A stretch of 63,989 bases of DNA, counting the filler, from an uncultured bacterium (GTDB lineage: Bacteria; Hinthialibacterota; Hinthialibacteria; Hinthialibacterales; Hinthialibacteraceae), in the NCBI GenBank assembly GCA_964449065.1. It is 8 parts of 8 records of this genome, joined end to end, with 100 filler letters (N's around TTAATTAATTAA, not from the genome) between each part and the next. Parts side by side here need not be neighbours in the genome. Positions count along the whole stretch, not along the records: positions 58,117 to 63,989 come from CAYVAZ010000326.1; 7 more parts are not named here. One strand, given 5' to 3'. Every line of letters begins with the position of its first letter. Within the stretch, counting starts at the first letter, position 1. Below, piece after piece: positions 8,259 through 63,989 of this stretch. The notes under the pieces are model-generated. The model did not search any database. It saw nothing but the letters and a program-made list of their open reading frames with translations, and had not been told where the DNA came from. Made by a program: the position numbers and the translations under genes.

Positions 8259-8358
8259 NNNNNNNNNNNNNNNNNNNNNNNNNNNNNNNNNNNNNNNNNN
8301 NNTTAATTAATTAANNNNNNNNNNNNNNNNNNNNNNNNNNNNNNNNNNNNNNNNNNNN
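8259..8358. other. artificial contig spacer
   Basis: N44-TTAATTAATTAA-N44; also at 16606-16705, 24932-25031, 33216-33315, 41497-41596, 49763-49862, 58017-58116. Confidence 0.98.
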
Positions 8359-16605: not shown

Positions 16606-16885
16606 NNNNNNNNNNNNNNNNNNNNNNNNNNNNNNNNNNNNNNNNNNNNTTAATTAATTAANNNNNNNNNNNNNNNNNNNNNNNNNNNNNNNNNNNNNNN
16701 NNNNNGGCATTACCCACAGGGATATGATTGCGAAAGAATTTTTAATGATAATTTAAAAGATCCTTTGGCGGAGTAAAAATAATATGAAACGTCCATGATA
16801 AAATAATTATGATTTTAACACACACGAGCATGATTATTTTATCATGGTAAGTTCCATCTGACCACTAAAAATTAAAAATAAACAG

Positions 16886-24869: not shown

Positions 24870-25205
24870 TTGATAAAAATAACAACAACATGAATACACA
24901 AAGAATACTGATACTTTCGGGATGTTTGCTANNNNNNNNNNNNNNNNNNNNNNNNNNNNNNNNNNNNNNNNNNNNTTAATTAATTAANNNNNNNNNNNNN
25001 NNNNNNNNNNNNNNNNNNNNNNNNNNNNNNNATCATTGATTGCGTAACATCAGTTATTTAGTGACTATCAAAACGGATTTAAATCTCGCAAAAATACCTA
25101 CCGTATAGAATTTTGCGTACCATGAGTTCAGTAAATTACAGACAAGTTTACCCATAGTTCCGGCGGGTTAAAGCGCTGTACCAAAAGATACCCCAAAACG
25201 GATTG

Positions 25206-30628: not shown

Positions 30629-31156
30629 TAGAGCGTTTCAGAGTTGAATAGCCGGGTAGCACCGGCTTCCAGCCGGTAAATGCATGCGCAACCCTGGGAG
30701 GGCGAGGCTCCCGCCGAGCCAGCGTCACGCTATGCCTCCCCGATAATCCTAAATAAAACCGATGTGAAACTATAAGAACTGAGTATGCCTCCGCTGTCAT
30801 TCACGTGCATTCGCGTTCATTCGCGGTTGAAAAATGTAGTGCAGACTTCCAACCTGCAAAAGCCTTAGTCTCCCCCAAATCCTTTGGGGGAGATGTCCGA
30901 CGCCAGGAGGACAGAGGGGGGCNNNNNNNNNNNNNNNNNNNNNNNNNNNNNNNNNNNNNNNNNNNNNNNNNNNNNNNNNNNNNNNNNNNNNNNNNNNNNN
31001 NNNNNNNNNNNNNNNNNNNNNNGTGTAGACTTCCAACCTGCAAAAGCCATTGTCTCCCCCAAATCCTTTGGGGGAGACACAGAGAGGGTTGTGAAGAGCG
31101 CAATCACCTATTTTATTTCACAAAACGCCCGTAATTTTCTTAAGTCAATGACATTG
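30629..31156 (+). repeat. composite REP/MITE cluster spanning a 100-N scaffold gap (30923-31022)
   Basis: Family A left end plus palindromes GGGAGGGCGAGGCTCCCGCCGAGCC and CTCCCCCAAATCCTTTGGGGGAG; colinear with 36186-36487. Confidence 0.8.
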
Positions 31157-33215: not shown

Positions 33216-33644
33216 NNNNNNNNNNNNNNNNNNNNNNNNNNNNNNNNNNNNNNNNNNNNTTAATTAATTAANNNNNNNNNNNNNNNNNNNNNNNNNNNNN
33301 NNNNNNNNNNNNNNNTGATATAAAGTATGAAGACCATTGGATGAATTGGCTGGCGACGGGGACACATCATGGCACAGAATGAGAAATGGATTTGTATAGA
33401 GATCGTGAACAGTAAAAACAATAAGACGATGAAACTTTATCATCCGCCAAAAGATGGTGCTGCTGGAGAAGATGTTGATCGGGATTGCTTTATCCCATAA
33501 AAAAACTCTTATAAAATCTCTCGTTATTACAACAAAACTCTTCGCATACCAACCTCCATGTTCATCCCGGGAAGTCATCCTTTCTGATTTTCACACCAAT
33601 CCGTCCGCTCGCGTGCACTAGAAAATAGGACTGGATAATATGAC

Positions 33645-40857: not shown

Positions 40858-40926
40858 CGGGGTGTAGCGCAGCCTGGTAGCGCGCCTGCTTTGGGAGCAG
40901 GNNNNNNNNNNATCCCTCCACCCCGA
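40858..40926 (+). tRNA. tRNA-Pro(UGG), interrupted by a 10-N gap
   Basis: CGGGGTG/CACCCCG acceptor, D arm GCGCAGCCTGGTAGCGC, anticodon arm CCTGC-TTTGGGA-GCAGG; no encoded CCA. Confidence 0.9.
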
Positions 40927-41496: not shown

Positions 41497-41676
41497 NNNN
41501 NNNNNNNNNNNNNNNNNNNNNNNNNNNNNNNNNNNNNNNNTTAATTAATTAANNNNNNNNNNNNNNNNNNNNNNNNNNNNNNNNNNNNNNNNNNNNCCCT
41601 TGTTAAGGGGGGCTAGGGGGGATCAATACCCGTCAATAAAACGTTGACACTTTAAAGGATTCAAACAAGGGAACCC

Positions 41677-49654: not shown

Positions 49655-50025
49655 ATCGTAAGGCAATGTATAAACCTAAAAAAAGCAGTTGCTATTGAAA
49701 AGTATGCCATAACTTTTTGAATATAATATAATTATGAAATGCGGAGCAGTTGAAAAATAATCNNNNNNNNNNNNNNNNNNNNNNNNNNNNNNNNNNNNNN
49801 NNNNNNTTAATTAATTAANNNNNNNNNNNNNNNNNNNNNNNNNNNNNNNNNNNNNNNNNNNNCGCTCGGTGCTTCAATCCCTCCCCTAACCCCTCCCAAC
49901 TTTGGGAGGGGGAATTTCTCTTCAAGCGGCTGACCTATGACAATATTTCATACTCCTTGCCTTATCCCGCAAGTTCATGGCACAATGATAACGCAAGACA
50001 AATTGTGTATGAAAGGGCCTGTAAC

Positions 50026-58016: not shown

Positions 58017-58145
58017 NNNNNNNNNNNNNNNNNNNNNNNNNNNNNNNNNNNNNNNNNNNNTTAATTAATTAANNNNNNNNNNNNNNNNNNNNNNNNNNNN
58101 NNNNNNNNNNNNNNNNCGAGATTTGTAATTTGTACTGTTTGTATC

Positions 58146-59855
58146 TTGTGTTTCATACCGTTTAGCGCCATAAACGCCGTAACAGATGACCTCAAAGAAC
58201 TCAAGAAATTGCTTCATGGCCGGATGGGCCGGGAAGCTACGGTGGTAACATTTATGGGAGTTTCATGCCCGGTATCCAACCGTTATGTACCCCGCTTGAA
58301 TGAATTGTCCAAGACTTATGGCAGCCAAGGGATTGCCTTCATTGGGTTTAACTCCAATCCGGGTGAAACGGCTTTAGAAACGGCTCTTCATGCGGAAAAA
58401 TACGATCTCCATTTTCCTGTCTATAAAGATGTTCATCACAACGCCGCGGATTATTTTGGCGCCCAAAAAACACCGGAAGTCTTTCTCATCGATAAACAGG
58501 GCGCGATTCAATACGAAGGGCGGATAGACGGGCAATACGGTGTCGGGCACGCCACGCTGCCGAAACAAGGACGTTATGACCTAAAGGTCGCGATCGATGA
58601 AGTGCTGGCGGGCAAAAAAGTCAGCCAGCCCAAAACACAAGCCATCGGTTGTGTATTGACCCGTGATTATGATTCACAACCCGAAATTACTTACAGCAAG
58701 CATATATCCCGCATCATGCAAAACAACTGCCAAACATGCCACCGGCCGGATGGCGTCGCCGAATTTTATCCCTGGATGGATTATGACGATGTGCGCGCTA
58801 TGGCAGGGATGATTAAGCAAGTTGTGATCGAAGAGCGTATGCCGCCTTGGCACGCCGACCCCCGGTACGGGGTGTTTTCCAATGACCGCAGTATGAGCAA
58901 GGAAGATAGAAACGCTCTCATCGCCTGGGTTGATGCCGGCAGCCCGGAAGGGGATACAGCCAATTTGCCGGAACCGAAAACCTACCCATCCCAACACTTT
59001 ACCATTGGTGAACCGGATCATATCATCAGGATGCCGCAAGAATTTGATGTCCCGGCGGACGGCGTTGTGGATTATCAATACTTCATGATTGAGCAAGAAG
59101 TGAAAGAAGATTTGTGGATTCAAAAGGCCGAGGCCATTATGGACAGCCCCGCCGTGCACCACATCATTTTGTTTTGGGTTCCGCCGGGTGGCGATCCCCG
59201 CAAAAACCGAAACATGTTAGTCGGTACCGCGCCCGGAGATATGCCGCTCGATTTGCCGGACGGCATGGCGATTCATGTCCCAAAAGGCTCACGGTTTTTG
59301 ATTGAGATGCATTACACGCCCATCGGCCGCCCCGTGACCGACCGTTCGTTTATCGGCTTGATCAAGGCAAAAGAAGAGGTTGACCGGGTTGTGTATGGCA
59401 ATCCGATGGGGAGACACGACTTTTCCATCCCCCCGGGGAAAGCCGATCATAAAGAAATTTCCAAATTCAACGTTCTGGAAGACATTGAAGTGGTTTCGTT
59501 TATGCCGCACATGCACGTTCGGGGCAAAAGTTGGAAGTACACGGCTCTCTATCCGGACGGCCGCGAAGAGGTTTTGCTGTATGTCCCCAACTACGATTTC
59601 AATTGGCAAAGCGTGTACATGTACGAAAAAAACCCGGTGCTGCCCAAAGGCACAACGATTGTTTGTGAAGCGGTATGGGATAACTCAGCGGAGAACCCCT
59701 ACAACCCCGACCCAGCAAAGACCGTACGTTACGGAGAACAAACTTGGGAAGAAATGATGTTCGGTTTTATGCAATATGTTCACGTGGATAAGAAGTTTCA
59801 AGACAACCGCGCCCTATCGAGGATGGATGGCAAAAAGAAAAGAAAGCGGTCGTAA
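58146..59855 (+). CDS. redoxin + c-type haem + copper type II monooxygenase-like fusion protein
   Basis: SCPVS, TPEVF, CQTCH, MPPW, VHHIIL, MPHMH.RGK, YDFNWQ, EMM; start uncertain near contig edge. Confidence 0.82.
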   Translation: MCFIPFSAINAVTDDLKELKKLLHGRMGREATVVTFMGVSCPVSNRYVPRLNELSKTYGSQGIAFIGFNSNPGETALETALHAEKYDLHFPVYKDVHHNAADYFGAQKTPEVFLIDKQGAIQYEGRIDGQYGVGHATLPKQGRYDLKVAIDEVLAGKKVSQPKTQAIGCVLTRDYDSQPEITYSKHISRIMQNNCQTCHRPDGVAEFYPWMDYDDVRAMAGMIKQVVIEERMPPWHADPRYGVFSNDRSMSKEDRNALIAWVDAGSPEGDTANLPEPKTYPSQHFTIGEPDHIIRMPQEFDVPADGVVDYQYFMIEQEVKEDLWIQKAEAIMDSPAVHHIILFWVPPGGDPRKNRNMLVGTAPGDMPLDLPDGMAIHVPKGSRFLIEMHYTPIGRPVTDRSFIGLIKAKEEVDRVVYGNPMGRHDFSIPPGKADHKEISKFNVLEDIEVVSFMPHMHVRGKSWKYTALYPDGREEVLLYVPNYDFNWQSVYMYEKNPVLPKGTTIVCEAVWDNSAENPYNPDPAKTVRYGEQTWEEMMFGFMQYVHVDKKFQDNRALSRMDGKKKRKRS

Positions 59856-59912
59856 ACCAAACGATGTAAGTTGAATCGTCTTGTCGTGAATAAGGATGAA
59901 TGTAGATCATTG

Positions 59913-60071
59913 GAAAAAACGCGGATCAAAGATTAGCGGATCAATATTCGGATGTCTTCCAGAGACTTGGCTTGTCTGCAAAGACAGGCAAACCGTTTTG
60001 GAATGCCCTACCAAACCTTGATATCCAGCGTGCTGCACCGCTACGTCACCGGGGATTTAAAAGAGAAGTAA
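59913..60071 (+). pseudogene. BrnA/CopG-like antitoxin remnant
   Basis: KD*RINIRMSSRDL...GMPYQTLISSVLHRYVTG with TAG at 59934-59936. Confidence 0.65.
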
Positions 60072-60178
60072 TTTTCCGGCCAATCTTAAAGGCAGACTTT
60101 GCTTGCCTTTGGCAGCCAAACAGCCTTCTTGAAACTTTCCAAATTTATCCACGTAATGGTTGATTTTGATCACACCAA

Positions 60179-61333
60179 CTACCGCAACTTCACCTGCTTC
60201 ATCAATTTCCGCAGGGATTCAAGGTTTTGCTTCCGCTCAGGATCAGCGAAATGCTCGCGGACGGGGGCGAGCAAGTCGATCAGGCTCTGCGAGACCGCCG
60301 CTTTTAAATCCATGGGGTGGAGTTCTTTCTTACCAAAGCAGTCGGTGAGTTCTTCGTAGGTCTCAAAAGTCAGGTTGCCGCCGTGTTCTTCCTTACGCTC
60401 AATATGCAGCGGGCCGCGGTGCAGCCCGAATACCATGCGCTTGGTCCAATCCAGTACCGGGTTGAAGCCCACTTCGCCTTCGGGGCAGAAGGCCTTTTTG
60501 ATTTTGCGCTTGATGTCGTCCGGCTCATCGGTGACAAACACAGCCGTATCCGGCTTGGATTTGCTCATCTTCATCTTGGCCAGCATGTCTTTAACCTTTT
60601 CAGGCTCAATCGGCCATACCGGGGGCTTGCCCAGCCCCACCAGCAGCGGGTGATGAATGGCGACCGGCGTGATCTTTTTGCCGTCGTGCGTCAGCGGCAG
60701 GGTTTTCATCTGGTTCGCCACATTGGTTGCCAGCACATGCGCTTTGCGCTGATCCATGCCCGCGTGCATGATATTCACCCCCAGCGCGTAGACATCGGCC
60801 ACCTGCATGGGCGGGTAGATCAACTTGGCGAAATCAACCGCGTCGCCTTCCTCACGTCCCATAATGGTAATCGAACGCAGAATCCGCTTGAGCGAAGTGT
60901 TCTTGCACACTTCAATAAACGCCGTCCAAAATTCGGGTTTGTTGTTGTAGAGTTCAGAGCCCAGCACGACATTAAGTTGCTCCGGGTCGCCGCCCAGCGC
61001 TTTTAAACAGGCTTTGAGGCCTTCGGCAAAATAGCCGTATGCCACGTTTCGAATGGTTTCAACATCGCCGCCCAGTTTGTCGTTAATCCAACTGTGGTAA
61101 TCGGCCAAAAACAGCGTGCATTCCACCCCCGCCTTTTGCAGGTTCGCCACCACCGACATGCATTGAATGCCGGTGCCGAGATGAATCTCGCCGGATATCT
61201 CAAAGCCGATGTAATGGCGCAGGGGAACATCTTTCTCCAAATACTCTTGCAGGCGTTCTTCGGTCAGAATTTCTTCGGTGAATTCTTTGATCAAGTCAAA
61301 GCGTTCTTGAGTGCTGATGGCCGTTGTTGTCAT
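60179..61333 (-). CDS. tyrS: tyrosyl-tRNA synthetase, archaeal type
   Basis: HYIGFEISGEIHLGTG, ADYHSWINDKLGGD, LIYPPMQVAD, AGMDQRKAH, KMSKSKP, AFCP, LHPMDLK; 384 aa, no S4 domain. Confidence 0.95.
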   Translation of the reverse strand: MTTTAISTQERFDLIKEFTEEILTEERLQEYLEKDVPLRHYIGFEISGEIHLGTGIQCMSVVANLQKAGVECTLFLADYHSWINDKLGGDVETIRNVAYGYFAEGLKACLKALGGDPEQLNVVLGSELYNNKPEFWTAFIEVCKNTSLKRILRSITIMGREEGDAVDFAKLIYPPMQVADVYALGVNIMHAGMDQRKAHVLATNVANQMKTLPLTHDGKKITPVAIHHPLLVGLGKPPVWPIEPEKVKDMLAKMKMSKSKPDTAVFVTDEPDDIKRKIKKAFCPEGEVGFNPVLDWTKRMVFGLHRGPLHIERKEEHGGNLTFETYEELTDCFGKKELHPMDLKAAVSQSLIDLLAPVREHFADPERKQNLESLRKLMKQVKLR

Positions 61334-61378
61334 CGGTGATCGCCGTCAAATGGGATTGGGTTTGTTAAAAAGATAAAG

Positions 61379-61461
61379 TCCAGGGGGTAGGATTTGAACC
61401 TACGTACTCGTACGAGAACGGATTTACAGTCCGTCGCCTTTAACCACTCGGCCACCCCTGG
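61379..61461 (-). tRNA. tRNA-Tyr(GUA) with C1:G72, A73 and long variable arm
   Basis: CCAGGGG TG GCCGAGTGGTTAAAGGC G ACGGA CTGTAAA TCCGT TCTCGTACGAGTAC GTAGG TTCAAAT CCTAC CCCCTGG A; no encoded CCA. Confidence 0.96.
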
Positions 61462-61496
61462 ATTTTGGATATGCCGGTTAAAATCCTGAAACAATC

Positions 61497-61525
61497 AGTA
61501 TATTTACAAAGCCTAAAAGTTTCAA
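61497..61525 (-). promoter_or_regulatory. sigma-70 promoter for tRNA-Tyr-tyrS
   Basis: TTGAAA-N17-TATACT on the minus strand, 35 nt upstream of the tRNA. Confidence 0.65.
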
Positions 61526-61600
61526 CTGGTGGAGTATTTTCTTTGGCAATCCCGGATTGTCAAGCCGAAGGTTTATCCAACGGCTTACGTGGCGGTTTAT

Positions 61601-61629
61601 GTGACAATCCGGGAATTGGTGACTATACT
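61601..61629 (+). promoter_or_regulatory. divergent sigma-70 promoter candidate
   Basis: GTGACA-N17-TATACT upstream of the NtrC-family gene. Confidence 0.5.
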
Positions 61630-61666
61630 GCCAGTAGATCCAAACCGAACGTGAAACGGCAACAAT

Positions 61667-63055
61667 ATGAGTAACGTAGACCGCGGAAAAATATTGGTCG
61701 TTGATGACGAAAAGGGCATGTGCCACATCCTGAACCGCATGCTGACCGACGAGGGCTATGACGTGCAAACCGCCGTTTGCGGCGAGGACGCGCTGAAGAT
61801 TTTGGAGAAAAACACCTTCGATGCCGCCATGGTGGATATCCGCATGCCGGGGATGAGCGGGCTGGATTTGTTGGAGCATATCCATAGGGATTCGCCGGAT
61901 ACATCGGTGGTGATGATGACCGCGTTCGGCACCATTGAAACCGCCGTCAACGCCATGAAACGCGGGGCGTATGAATACATCACCAAGCCGTTCAACAACG
62001 ATGAAGTCATTCACATATTGAACAACGCGCTGGAGCGCAAGCAGCTCATCGACCGCAACCGCTACCTCACCGAAACGCTGGAAGAACGGCATCAGCTTTC
62101 GGGGATCATCGGGCAGAGCGATGCCATGCAGTCCTGCTTCCGCATGGTGGAAAAGGTGGCCCCGACCGGCAGCACGGTTTTGATTCTGGGAGAAAGCGGC
62201 ACTGGAAAAGAACTCTTCGCGCGCGCGATCCATCAGCATTCCAACCGCAAGGATGAGAAATTCATGGCGGTAAACTGCGGCGCCCTGCCCCGCGACCTGA
62301 TCGAAAGTGAACTATTCGGGCATGAGAAGGGGGCGTTTTCCGGAGCGCATAAACGCAAGATCGGGCTAATGGAATCGGCGCATAAGGGGACCATCTTTCT
62401 GGATGAAATCGGTGATCTGCCGCTGGAACTGCAAGTAAAACTTTTGCGCGTACTGGAATCGCACGAAGTACGCCGGGTCGGCAGTGTGGAACCCATCACT
62501 ATTGACGCGCGCGTGGTGGCCGCCACCAACCGCGATTTGCAGGATGATGTGCAATCCGGCACCTTCCGTGAGGATTTGTTCTTTCGCCTGTCGATTGTGG
62601 ATATCAGCATCCCGCCATTGCGCGAACGGAAGGATGACATCCCGGTATTGATCGACTATTTTATCGAAAAATTCAATGACAAGATGAACCGCAGCGTGAC
62701 CGGGATATCCGAAGAGGTAATGCGTGCGTTTATGCAGCATCACTGGCCTGGCAATGTGCGCGAACTGGAAAATGTAGTGCAGCGCTGCATGGTGCTGCGC
62801 GAATCGGGAGTGGTTCAACTGGAAGATTTGCCGTCATCCATCAAAGCGTCGCAGGAAACCGAGGCCCCGCTGGACATTGACCCTCAAGCCATCTCGCTGC
62901 AGGAAGCGCGGGAAGCGTTTGAGAAGAAGTACCTCAAAAAACTGCTGGAAATGAATGATGGGAATGTCACGCAATCCGCCCAACTCGCGGGCATCAGCCG
63001 GCGGCACTTGCAGGAATTGATGAAAAAGTACGGTCTGCGCCCGAAAGATGAGTGA
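61667..63055 (+). CDS. NtrC-family sigma-54 response regulator
   Basis: REC (VVDDE, DIRMP), GESGTGKE, GAFSGA, FLDEIG, WPGNVREL, Fis-type HTH. Confidence 0.95.
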   Translation: MSNVDRGKILVVDDEKGMCHILNRMLTDEGYDVQTAVCGEDALKILEKNTFDAAMVDIRMPGMSGLDLLEHIHRDSPDTSVVMMTAFGTIETAVNAMKRGAYEYITKPFNNDEVIHILNNALERKQLIDRNRYLTETLEERHQLSGIIGQSDAMQSCFRMVEKVAPTGSTVLILGESGTGKELFARAIHQHSNRKDEKFMAVNCGALPRDLIESELFGHEKGAFSGAHKRKIGLMESAHKGTIFLDEIGDLPLELQVKLLRVLESHEVRRVGSVEPITIDARVVAATNRDLQDDVQSGTFREDLFFRLSIVDISIPPLRERKDDIPVLIDYFIEKFNDKMNRSVTGISEEVMRAFMQHHWPGNVRELENVVQRCMVLRESGVVQLEDLPSSIKASQETEAPLDIDPQAISLQEAREAFEKKYLKKLLEMNDGNVTQSAQLAGISRRHLQELMKKYGLRPKDE

Positions 63056-63059
63056 TGAA

Positions 63060-63473
63060 TTATGAACACCAGTTCTCAACTTGAAGGTTTGTAATGCGGC
63101 GAAAATGAGATTCGTTGTTTGTTACGATAACCAAATCATGTGTGATAGCAGTAGCGGCAATTAAAATATCAGCATCACCAACCAATTCACCTCTACGATA
63201 AAGATCTGAGTATATTTTGGCTGCTTCTATGATGGTGGAGTCGGACAAGGGTATGATGCGGCTTGTAGAGCATAATTTATCAAACAATTCTTGTTGTTTG
63301 ATTGCTTCTTTGGCAAGCAGCCCCCGGTAGATTTCGTATTTTGTAATAATGGAAAAAGTAAACCGGCTGTAATCGTTTAAATAGGATTGAGCATTGTCTA
63401 ATACAATGGGGTTTTTACGCATTACCAGCGACAAAATGTCCGTATCAAGCATCACTGGCGCAAGTTTTGTCAT
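63060..63473 (-). CDS. vapC: VapC PIN-domain toxin
   Basis: MLDTDIL, DILIAATA, VTNNESHF..I..L.VENW. Confidence 0.92.
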   Translation of the reverse strand: MTKLAPVMLDTDILSLVMRKNPIVLDNAQSYLNDYSRFTFSIITKYEIYRGLLAKEAIKQQELFDKLCSTSRIIPLSDSTIIEAAKIYSDLYRRGELVGDADILIAATAITHDLVIVTNNESHFRRITNLQVENWCS

Positions 63474-63712
63474 GGAGCAATCCTTTTGTCAAAGAAATTT
63501 TCACGCCTTTGAATATGTTGTTCAATCGCATCAATCTCATCTTCGCTGAGACCTTCATAAACTTGCGTGGCTAAAGAAAGTACATTGTCTTGTTTTTCCA
63601 ATGGTTCTACTACAATACGTACCTTTTGCCCTTCTTCAAGAGTGATACTCTCAGGAGTAACCGGGCGAAAACCACCATGCTCATAGACAGCTTCGATTGT
63701 TTCTGTTGTCAT
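63470..63712 (-). CDS. AF2212/DUF104-like antitoxin
   Basis: TIEAVYEHGGFRP...LEEGQKVRIVV; 4-nt overlap with vapC. Confidence 0.85.
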   Translation of the reverse strand: MTTETIEAVYEHGGFRPVTPESITLEEGQKVRIVVEPLEKQDNVLSLATQVYEGLSEDEIDAIEQHIQRRENFFDKRIAP

Positions 63713-63770
63713 TTTTTTACCTCATAATATTTAGATTATCCAGGCTAAACGACTTGAATCAAGAGATAAC

Positions 63771-63945
63771 TCACCGCTGGTAGACACATACTTTTCCCAC
63801 CATGCGCCGAGCCATTTCCTCTTTACTAAGGAGCATGTCCGACATCTTCTCACTGATGTGCAAAGCGAAGCAGCGCTTAACCGCCACAGCCGTCACCTCT
63901 TCCAAAACCCTTCCTCTTCAAGAAAATCATCGGAACGGAACGTGT
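63771..63945 (-). pseudogene. degraded XRE/HigA-like antitoxin remnant
   Basis: Frameshifted pieces DDFLEEEG / LEEVTAVAVKR...LSKEEMARRM. Confidence 0.5.
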
Positions 63946-63989
63946 CAAGAGTTATGAGACACCTCTTTGTCGAAATTAACGAGCAATTC

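Follow-up and report, generated by a model that had tools for sequence, protein, structure and literature searches.

What kind of tyrosine system operates in a bacterium whose tRNA-Tyr has a bacterial body and an archaeal acceptor stem? Tyrosyl-tRNA synthetase (TyrRS) and tRNA-Tyr follow a textbook identity rule that divides Bacteria from Archaea and Eukarya, and the orthogonal pair most often employed to expand the genetic code depends on it. The question is raised by a tRNA-Tyr(GUA) gene located at 61379..61461 on the minus strand of a 63,989-nt stretch of DNA from an uncultured bacterium of the family Hinthialibacteraceae (phylum Hinthialibacterota; GenBank assembly GCA_964449065.1, here G000). 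This whole stretch, hereafter the window, consists of eight contigs of one metagenome-assembled genome (MAG) joined by N, and the tRNA-Tyr resides on contig C326 (CAYVAZ010000326.1), which has a length of 5,873 bp and occupies window positions 58117-63989. A sequence-only reading had described the gene as a hybrid, and our analysis confirmed this observation. We consider it highly probable that the working tyrosine system of this lineage combines a bacterial class II tRNA-Tyr of archaeal acceptor identity with an acquired TyrRS of the type found in DPANN archaea, and that it results from one replacement in the ancestor of the family.

Read 5' to 3' on the minus strand, the 83-nt gene begins with CCAGGGG, TG, GCC, GAGTGGTTAAA, GGC and G on the D-arm side, continues through the anticodon arm (ACGGA, CTGTAAA, TCCGT), the variable region TCTCGTACGAGTAC and the T arm (GTAGG, TTCAAAT, CCTAC), and ends with CCCCTGG and A. 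The acceptor 5' strand CCAGGGG (tRNA positions 1-7, 61455..61461) pairs with the 3' strand CCCCTGG (positions 66-72, 61380-61386), which together with the discriminator A73 at 61379 occupies 61379..61386; the first three acceptor pairs are C1:G72, C2:G71 and A3:U70. ARAGORN and the reading of the sequence agree on the anticodon GTA at 61425..61427, and the variable arm of 14 nt (61404..61417) forms a stem CUC/GAG with a loop GUAC, as documented by its sequence and by covariation. The Rfam model RF00005 aligns over its entire length (positions 1-71) to 61379..61461 on the minus strand with 65.1 bits compared to a gathering score of 29, and ARAGORN calls a single tRNA-Tyr(gta) at 61378..61461 on the same strand, the one tRNA that it reported in the window. 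The register of ARAGORN is one base longer in many relatives, with T-1 paired to A73 and the anticodon at position 36, but the Rfam model, together with where U8 falls, leads us to favor the standard 7-bp acceptor register. CCA is absent from the gene, and the 3' trailer reads CTTTATC... Both structural elements on which the sequence-only reading was based, the acceptor CCAGGGG/CCCCTGG with A73 and the 14-nt variable region folding as CTC-GTAC-GAG, are accordingly borne out by the minus-strand reading.

The GUA anticodon, A73 and the long arm with its own stem are those of a bacterial class II tRNA-Tyr, but the bacterial G1:C72 pair is missing, and C1:G72 is found instead in 19/19 sequences of the family set described below. 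The archaeal/eukaryal identity set is given as C1:G72, A73 and G34-U35-A36 in Table 1 of PMC9976931 and in the relevant section of PMC1934993, and all of these elements are present in the tRNA-Tyr of the window. Its body is nevertheless not of class I, since the arm of 14 nt contains a 3-bp stem; the statement of the sequence-only reading that archaeal tRNA-Tyr has a short variable loop agrees with the passages of PMC5370408 and PMC13433404 that classify it as a class I tRNA with this property.

The gene immediately downstream encodes an archaeal/eukaryal-type TyrRS of 384 aa (P0001; 60179..61333, minus strand), which starts 45 nt behind the tRNA-Tyr on the same strand. A Pfam scan of P0001 returned PF00579 alone (residues 36-355 of 384), the protein scores 405.6 bits against NCBIfam NF006330 (PRK08560; cut-off 220), and its 107.4 bits against the bacterial tyrS model TIGR00234 are under the cut-off of 113.8. 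The best PDB match is 2cyc, the TyrRS of P. horikoshii, in which positions 4-366 of 375 align with residues 9-369 of P0001 (E 2.4e-126); 7fg6 and the A. pernix enzyme 2cya come next, whereas the bacterial TyrRS 1h3e reaches just 2.4e-5. The class I motifs are represented by a HIGH-type HLGT at residue 51 and by KMSKS at residue 255. Neither Pfam nor the end-to-end alignment with 2cyc revealed an S4-like or any other C-terminal arm-binding domain in P0001, while the TyrRS of the sister-family genomes G020 and G021 bear SYY_C-terminal (PF22421) and S4 (PF01479) domains. The S4-less enzyme that had been predicted from the tRNA sequence is thus encoded right beside it.

The structural basis for recognition of the first acceptor pair is known from M. 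jannaschii TyrRS, in which, according to the section of Tsunoda et al. 2007 (PMC1934993) on these contacts, Arg174 touches C1, Lys175 touches G72 and Arg132 reaches C1 via water. These residues (R132, R174, K175) correspond to R153, R196 and K197 of P0001 in the alignment with 1j1u as well as in a MAFFT alignment, and all three are invariant in 19/19 family enzymes and 12/12 comparators. The same source describes an approach of TyrRS to the tRNA from the variable-loop/major-groove side and, for bacteria, binding of the long arm by the C-terminal domain. An added RNA-binding domain or insertion was sought in the family TyrRS and not found; the protein is colinear with its DPANN homologues. The sole family-specific length difference is the C-terminus ..VKLR, which is present in all family TyrRS (window 60179-60193) and extends 3-4 residues past the archaeal homologues.

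The comparison of the tRNA-Tyr genes within the phylum localizes the identity switch to two base pairs. Alignment A1 comprises 29 sequences with a mean column identity of 87%, namely, 18 from the family, one from the metagenome locus L142 and 10 from other families of the phylum. Columns 1, 2, 83 and 84 (positions 1, 2, 71 and 72) are C, C, G and G in 19/19 sequences of the family and L142 but G, G, C and C in 10/10 of the others, which have the acceptors GGAGGGG.../...CCCCTCC-A or GGGGGG(G/A).../...CCCCCC-A and thereby conform to the expectation that bacterial tRNA-Tyr commonly starts with GG. Pairs 1:72 and 2:71 are the only fully consistent differences between the two sets, and A73 is unchanged in 29/29 sequences. 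The window stem CCAGGGG/CCCCTGG equals that of sister family f2 (GGAGGGG/CCCCTCC) except for the inversion of pairs 1 and 2; A3:U70 is the same in both. Pair 31:39 differs nearly consistently: 18/19 family sequences have G:C, while the window shares A:U with all 10 sequences of the other families. Taken with the TyrRS tree, this pattern points to an early branching of the window's lineage within the family. The cloverleaf is strongly supported, because 99.6% of the cells of A1 are in standard pairs and 13/23 pairs have changed on both sides, values that were reached in 0/500 shuffles, and sliding the partner columns lowers pairing to 37-66%. In the stem of the variable arm, each of the 3 pairs shows changes on both sides within the phylum, and pairing extends to 97.7% of the cells. 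This covariation indicates that the arm is under selection despite an enzyme that lacks an arm-binding domain.

The distribution of the two TyrRS types follows the same boundary. The phylum is represented by 35 species genomes of one class and six families; the family of the window accounts for 20 genomes from 18 genera, 11 of them with a completeness of at least 90% and a contamination of at most 5%, and the other five families for 15 genomes. P0001 homologues are found in 20/20 family genomes (67-72% identity) compared to 0/15 genomes of the other families. The PF00579 query detected the archaeal-type TyrRS in 20/20 and additionally a match of the tryptophanyl-tRNA synthetase (TrpRS) class in 18/20 family genomes, but a bacterial-type TyrRS in 0/20. 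In G000 itself, which is 86.7% complete, the two PF00579 matches are the P0001 reading frame and a TrpRS on contig C197, and a TyrRS of bacterial type was not detected. In contrast, a bacterial-type match is present in 15/15 genomes of the other families, and five of these were confirmed by family model or domains. In 13/15 of them the PF00579 match reaches 264-300 bits, with reading frames of 350-503 aa, a score class unseen in the family of the window; the two genomes that could not be classed by score were checked with TIGR00234 and yielded 316 bits (G028) and 228.7 bits for a contig-end fragment (G023), and the TyrRS of G031 scores 424 bits on the same model.

The tRNA-Tyr and TyrRS genes are linked throughout the family. 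The tRNA-Tyr lies immediately upstream of TyrRS in 11/12 of the loci first checked, the twelfth being cut by a contig end, and the adjacency holds in all 18 genomes from which a complete tRNA-Tyr was recovered (18/20; contig ends truncate the loci of G015 and G017). The pair is embedded amid bacterial housekeeping genes on contigs as long as 1.85 Mb (G009:C2) and 582 kb (G007:C14). Among 31 named archaeal or 'Saccharibacteria' TyrRS loci, none has a tRNA-Tyr beside the synthetase gene, and among 80 metagenome loci this is the case only in L142, so that the adjacency represents a feature of this bacterial clade. L142 is a 3.5-kb metagenome contig of 57% GC on which a tRNA-Tyr (148-231) precedes TyrRS (266-1471). 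Its acceptor CCGGGGG/CCCCCGG has G:C at 3:70, and its TyrRS, which branches inside the family clade, contains an 18-residue insertion unseen in other family enzymes.

The archaeal affiliation of the enzyme is supported by sequence similarity and phylogeny. Matches of the TyrRS in the Protein Atlas are archaeal TyrRS clusters only, and the nearest named relatives outside the family are Micrarchaeota (58-59% identity) and Pace-/Woesearchaeota (55-56%), besides two 'Saccharibacteria' MAGs (52-53%). We calculated a TyrRS tree with IQ-TREE under LG+G4 and tested its branches with the Shimodaira-Hasegawa-like approximate likelihood ratio test (SH-aLRT); the 80 rows comprise 18 sequences from the family, 31 named ones, six metagenome loci of high GC and, of the other metagenome loci, every third one. 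The family and L142 form one clade with an SH-aLRT of 100, the sequence of L089, a high-GC metagenome contig, is its sister (92), and the resulting group is nested among Micrarchaeota and DPANN (Pace-/Woesearchaeota) sequences (97). The composition of the window TyrRS (GC 53.9%, GC at third codon positions 69.1%) closely resembles that of the neighboring sigma-54 regulator gene (54.6% and 70.0%), whereas DPANN-type TyrRS loci mostly have 26-40% GC. Moreover, its identity to the other family members (67-72%) is comparable to that of TrpRS (64-71% in 13 genomes). The TyrRS gene is fully ameliorated, and its TrpRS-like divergence is consistent with one old acquisition followed by vertical descent. 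The tRNA-Tyr of a donor was not retrieved: a 9-nt anticodon-loop pattern gave 89 matches in five genomes with 0 tRNA-Tyr in the 30 loci fetched, and none was found among the RF00005 matches covered, i.e. 37/37 of Micrarchaeota G042 and 8/30 of 'Saccharibacteria' G044 (six of class II length).

On this basis, we propose that a DPANN-type archaeal TyrRS was gained horizontally and displaced the S4-bearing bacterial TyrRS. This replacement would be a single event in the ancestor of one family within a phylum outside the Candidate Phyla Radiation (CPR), followed by vertical inheritance. The tRNA-Tyr is most simply explained as the lineage's own, changed by two transversion flips. R153, R196 and K197 of TyrRS would read the flipped first pair, A73 and the anticodon would be read as in archaea, and the long arm would project unbound by TyrRS, merely carried along, and the enzyme is predicted to tolerate it. 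The arm is presumably retained since the class II core, which has a D stem of 3 bp, relies on it. Gene anatomy, distribution, phylogeny, conserved residues, covariation and the lack of a bacterial-type TyrRS match in the 20 family genomes are observations, and charging specificity, co-transcription, native tRNA origin and the reason for arm retention are inferred.

Several findings weigh against this scenario. The contig of L089, the sister of the family TyrRS clade, has a GC content of 64%, and the neighboring genes (FG-GAP/ASPIC, peptidase M28, PALP-enzyme) look bacterial, so that the direct donor of the TyrRS may have been a bacterium. Intermediates with one flipped pair or with both systems together are missing among the 29 sequences; the alignment across the phylum that had been suggested as a check for them returned no single-flip tRNA. 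Due to the incompleteness of G000, a TyrRS may have been missed in this genome taken alone, and the genome contains an ordinary G1:C72 tRNA-Tyr in a Thr-Tyr-Gly tRNA cluster on contig C410 (locus L071, 1-1703). The mature 5' end, the charging and the co-transcription are all predictions from DNA sequence. Finally, two observations concern the native origin of the tRNA. The tRNA-Tyr genes of three other phyla are 91-92% identical to a sister-family tRNA-Tyr and those of the family itself 90%, and the loci of the family and the sister families have no flanking genes in common within 1.5 kb (16 versus 10 loci) or 10 kb (4 versus 4 genomes). Synteny is however uninformative about a flip in situ versus import, because the sister loci share no flanking genes with one another either.

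In the best-surviving alternative, a long-arm tRNA-Tyr bearing both C1:G72 and C2:G71 entered jointly with the archaeal-type TyrRS from another bacterium (CPR or other) and the native pair was lost; present-day anatomy and mechanism would be identical, and the origin of the tRNA alone would differ. Joint entry would agree with the adjacency of both genes in every uncut family locus while the wider flanks vary, as exemplified by the window, in which a thioredoxin/Cu-monooxygenase-like gene and the sigma-54 regulator occupy the places that an epimerase gene or hisH takes in four relatives. The lack of synteny with sister-family tRNA-Tyr loci, the bacterial-looking outgroup L089 and a tRNA sequence that is compatible with a foreign bacterial origin point in the same direction. 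A candidate donor with an adjacent pair is however missing, given that the named loci provide none and the only such metagenome locus, L142, belongs to the clade of the family; L089 is devoid of any tRNA within 5 kb on either side. Furthermore, the acceptor is that of sister family f2 with just two pairs flipped and A3:U70 kept, and neither integrase genes nor repeats nor composition breaks were found at the tRNA-Tyr/TyrRS locus. We therefore regard joint import as improbable. The sequence-only reading had proposed that a native bacterial tRNA flipped its pairs 1:72 and 2:71 by compensatory changes instead of being imported. The flips themselves are evident (19/19 versus 10/10) and import from archaea is excluded because the body is class II, but bacterial tRNA-Tyr is too conserved for similarity to tell a native gene from a bacterial import. 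The proposal is otherwise supported, and native origin is in our view the likelier of the two by a modest margin.

A bolder generalization would regard tRNA-Tyr and TyrRS as a self-sufficient two-gene identity cassette that moves among bacteria well beyond CPR and repeatedly displaces native pairs, with C2:G71 serving as an anti-determinant against tRNA-Pro. The support counted for it consists of the family, L142 and the high-GC contigs L089, L144, L154, L152 and L160. The latter five are metagenome contigs of 50-70% GC that harbor a DPANN-type TyrRS and bacterial-looking neighbors, which include FG-GAP/ASPIC, acyl-CoA carboxylase, GT87 and luciferase-like monooxygenase; none of the five has a tRNA-Tyr within 5 kb of TyrRS. 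Archaeal-type TyrRS may accordingly be present in more non-CPR bacteria. In this generalization, C2:G71 would be unneeded by the archaeal enzyme and would keep the C1:G72/A73 stem apart from that of bacterial tRNA-Pro. C1-G72 and A73 of tRNA-Pro are determinants of prolyl-tRNA synthetase in E. coli (PMC9976931), and as tRNA-Pro shares them with the flipped tRNA-Tyr, the second flip may keep the two tRNAs apart. We judge this generalization unlikely.

Two further tRNA species of G000 have related acceptor stems. A tRNA-Pro(TGG) gene at window 40858-40926 (RF00005, 36.8 bits) starts with CGGGGTG and contains 10 masked N at 40902-40911, and the tRNA-Pro genes on contigs C56 and C92 end with ..CACCCCG-A73. 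A tRNA-Arg(TCT) gene (G000:C281:5388-5464) with the acceptor CCGCCAG/CTGGCGG also exhibits C1:G72 and C2:G71; it has an encoded CCA and lies on a contig of 41% GC, and a second tRNA-Arg(TCT) gene is located on C332.

The presence of two tRNA-Tyr genes in G000 could alternatively mean that the pair on C326 is a specialized second tyrosine system, e.g. for stress, antibiotic resistance or regulation, that operates beside a standard bacterial pair, comparable to the TrpRS-A operons proposed in some CPR bacteria. There is a precedent in the sections of Mukai et al. 2017 (PMC5370408) that report the coexistence of bacterial and archaeal TrpRS/tRNA-Trp in one CPR bacterium. But a bacterial-type TyrRS was found in none of the 20 family genomes, including the 11 of high quality, and no second tRNA-Tyr was found in the 19 other family genomes, in which 7/7 weaker matches fetched proved to be tRNA-Ser. 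The C1:G72 tRNA is moreover the sole GTA-anticodon tRNA of native composition, because contig C410 has 66.1% GC, the third highest value of 515 contigs (mean 47.5%, standard deviation 3.9%) and a 4.8-standard-deviation outlier, compared to 49.8% for C326. Based on this deviation and on the lack of a second tRNA-Tyr elsewhere in the family, C410 is probably a contaminant contig, although this is not proven, and an auxiliary role of the pair is very improbable. The reverse scenario of a binning or assembly artefact, with C326 derived from an archaeon or CPR cell and the real system composed of the C410 tRNA-Tyr and an unassembled bacterial TyrRS, could invoke the fragmented MAG (515 contigs, 86.7% complete, 2.78% contamination), the mere 5.9 kb of C326 and the G1:C72 tRNA in the bin, but it is effectively refuted by the archaeal-type TyrRS in 20/20 family genomes on contigs of up to 1.85 Mb amid bacterial housekeeping genes, by the sigma-54 activator and native GC of C326 and by the outlier status of C410.

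The immediate surroundings of the pair complete the description of the locus. The 45-nt spacer that separates the start codon of TyrRS from the 3' end of the tRNA (61334..61378, minus strand) is T-rich and devoid of a terminator-like site, and a promoter-like TTGAAA-17-TATACT at 61497..61525 on the same strand, a consensus match only, ends 36 nt upstream of tRNA position 1. Three promoter-like sites were observed in the region compared to 1.3 expected from shuffles, and co-transcription of both genes is plausible. A leader RNA in front of the tRNA-Tyr, such as a T-box, was considered and rejected, because an Rfam E-value scan of 60100-61700 returned the tRNA alone. C326 is bacterial in content and encodes a sigma-54 response-regulator activator (61667-63055), a thioredoxin/Cu-monooxygenase-like protein and a PIN-domain protein. 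The PIN-domain (VapC-like) open reading frame (ORF; 63060-63473) has a GC content of 39% compared to 50% for the contig; together with an 80-aa ORF directly upstream (63470-63712), possibly an antitoxin, it likely represents a mobile toxin-antitoxin module. The loci L240-L243 of G009, G007, G004 and G012 share a different arrangement, with a divergent epimerase gene (absent in G009), tRNA-Tyr, TyrRS and a hisH-like GATase, accompanied by hisA/F in two of them; the neighbors of the pair in the window are unlike these on both sides. The contigs of the window are joined at 8259-8358, 16606-16705, 24932-25031, 33216-33315, 41497-41596, 49763-49862 and 58017-58116 (paired runs of 44 N), and a further run of 100 N is located at 30923-31022.

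TrpRS is dimorphic within the family. The bacterial-type TrpRS of the window's genome is 64-71% identical to its equivalents in 13 genomes but only 35-36% in G004, G010, G013 and G014, which may reflect a second synthetase replacement. In G028 (family f6), a PRK12285-type TrpRS is accompanied by another PF00579 fragment that contains a TGA in frame (G028:C1:1183489-1184331).

CPR bacteria have reduced genomes and live in close association with DPANN archaea. A comparable tyrosine system has been described from these bacteria by Mukai, Reynolds, Crnkovic and Soll (2017, Life 7:8, PMC5370408), whose paper, in the parts that deal with tyrosine, attributes archaea/eukarya-type TyrRS without S4-like domain to transfer from DPANN archaea. 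The corresponding CPR tRNA-Tyr has C1-G72, and the bacterial variable arm is kept 'in many cases', which these authors read as descent from bacterial tRNA-Tyr. The hosts named there are Parcubacteria, Microgenomates, WS6 and WWE3, and the legend of Figure 2 adds Roizman-, Davies-, Shapiro-, Wolfe- and Andersenbacteria as well as three 'orphan' bacterial genes, among which an unnamed non-CPR relative could in principle be included. The combination by which the CPR system is defined, an archaeal-type TyrRS and a C1-G72 tRNA-Tyr within the genome of a bacterium, is found here too, but the genomes of the phylum range from 4.1 to 8.4 Mb and do not belong to CPR hosts. A literature survey that covered neither figures nor supplements found no link of TyrRS with OLB16, Hinthialibacterota, Omnitrophota or Caldisericia; OLB16 was formerly assigned to Omnitrophota according to the taxonomic passage of PMC9324843, and the words 'tRNA' and 'tyrosyl' are absent from this description of Hinthialibacterota. 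The passages on the topic in PMC9976931, PMC13433404 and PMC9437257 contain no non-CPR case of archaeal tyrosine identity. The mechanism is hence already known from CPR, and what appears in no paper found is the non-CPR host and the contrast between family and sister families that isolates two base pairs.

The significance of the system is best seen in comparison to its known counterparts. It resembles the canonical bacterial tRNA-Tyr, as represented by the T. thermophilus complex and the sister families, in its class II type with a 3-bp D stem, long arm, A73 and GUA, but differs by the inverted pairs 1:72 and 2:71 and by a TyrRS without the SYY_C-terminal/S4 arm-binding domain. With the archaeal pairs of M. 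jannaschii (1J1U) and P. horikoshii (2CYC) it has in common the TyrRS fold, length class, HIGH/KMSKS motifs and C1:G72 readers as well as C1:G72 and A73 of the tRNA, whereas the 14-nt stem-loop arm and the bacterial D-arm of the window tRNA set it apart. In engineered E. coli, TyrRS and tRNA-Tyr have reportedly been replaced by an archaeal or eukaryotic pair, with the foreign tRNA imported too. The family would likewise have exchanged its bacterial tyrosine pair for one of archaeal identity, but here a bacterial-type tRNA body bears the archaeal acceptor signal, and the lineage thus provides a natural class II tRNA scaffold that is presumably accepted by an archaeal-type TyrRS. The CPR system (Mukai 2017) shares the S4-less DPANN-type TyrRS, the C1-G72 tRNA-Tyr and the kept variable arm. 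Unlike in CPR, the crossing of tyrosine identity documented here concerns a non-CPR phylum with genomes of a size typical of free-living bacteria (4-8 Mb), and the switch has gone to fixation throughout a family (20/20) whose sister families are of the bacterial type. Because the latter keep the bacterial system, the states before and after the switch can be compared base by base, and the tRNAs of both sides represent a natural before/after pair that bears on the weight of 1:72 versus 2:71 in the switch and on whether the long arm matters to a TyrRS without arm-binding domain. Measured against the CPR precedent, the advance is incremental and consists of a wider host range and a cleaner comparison, with no new mechanism.

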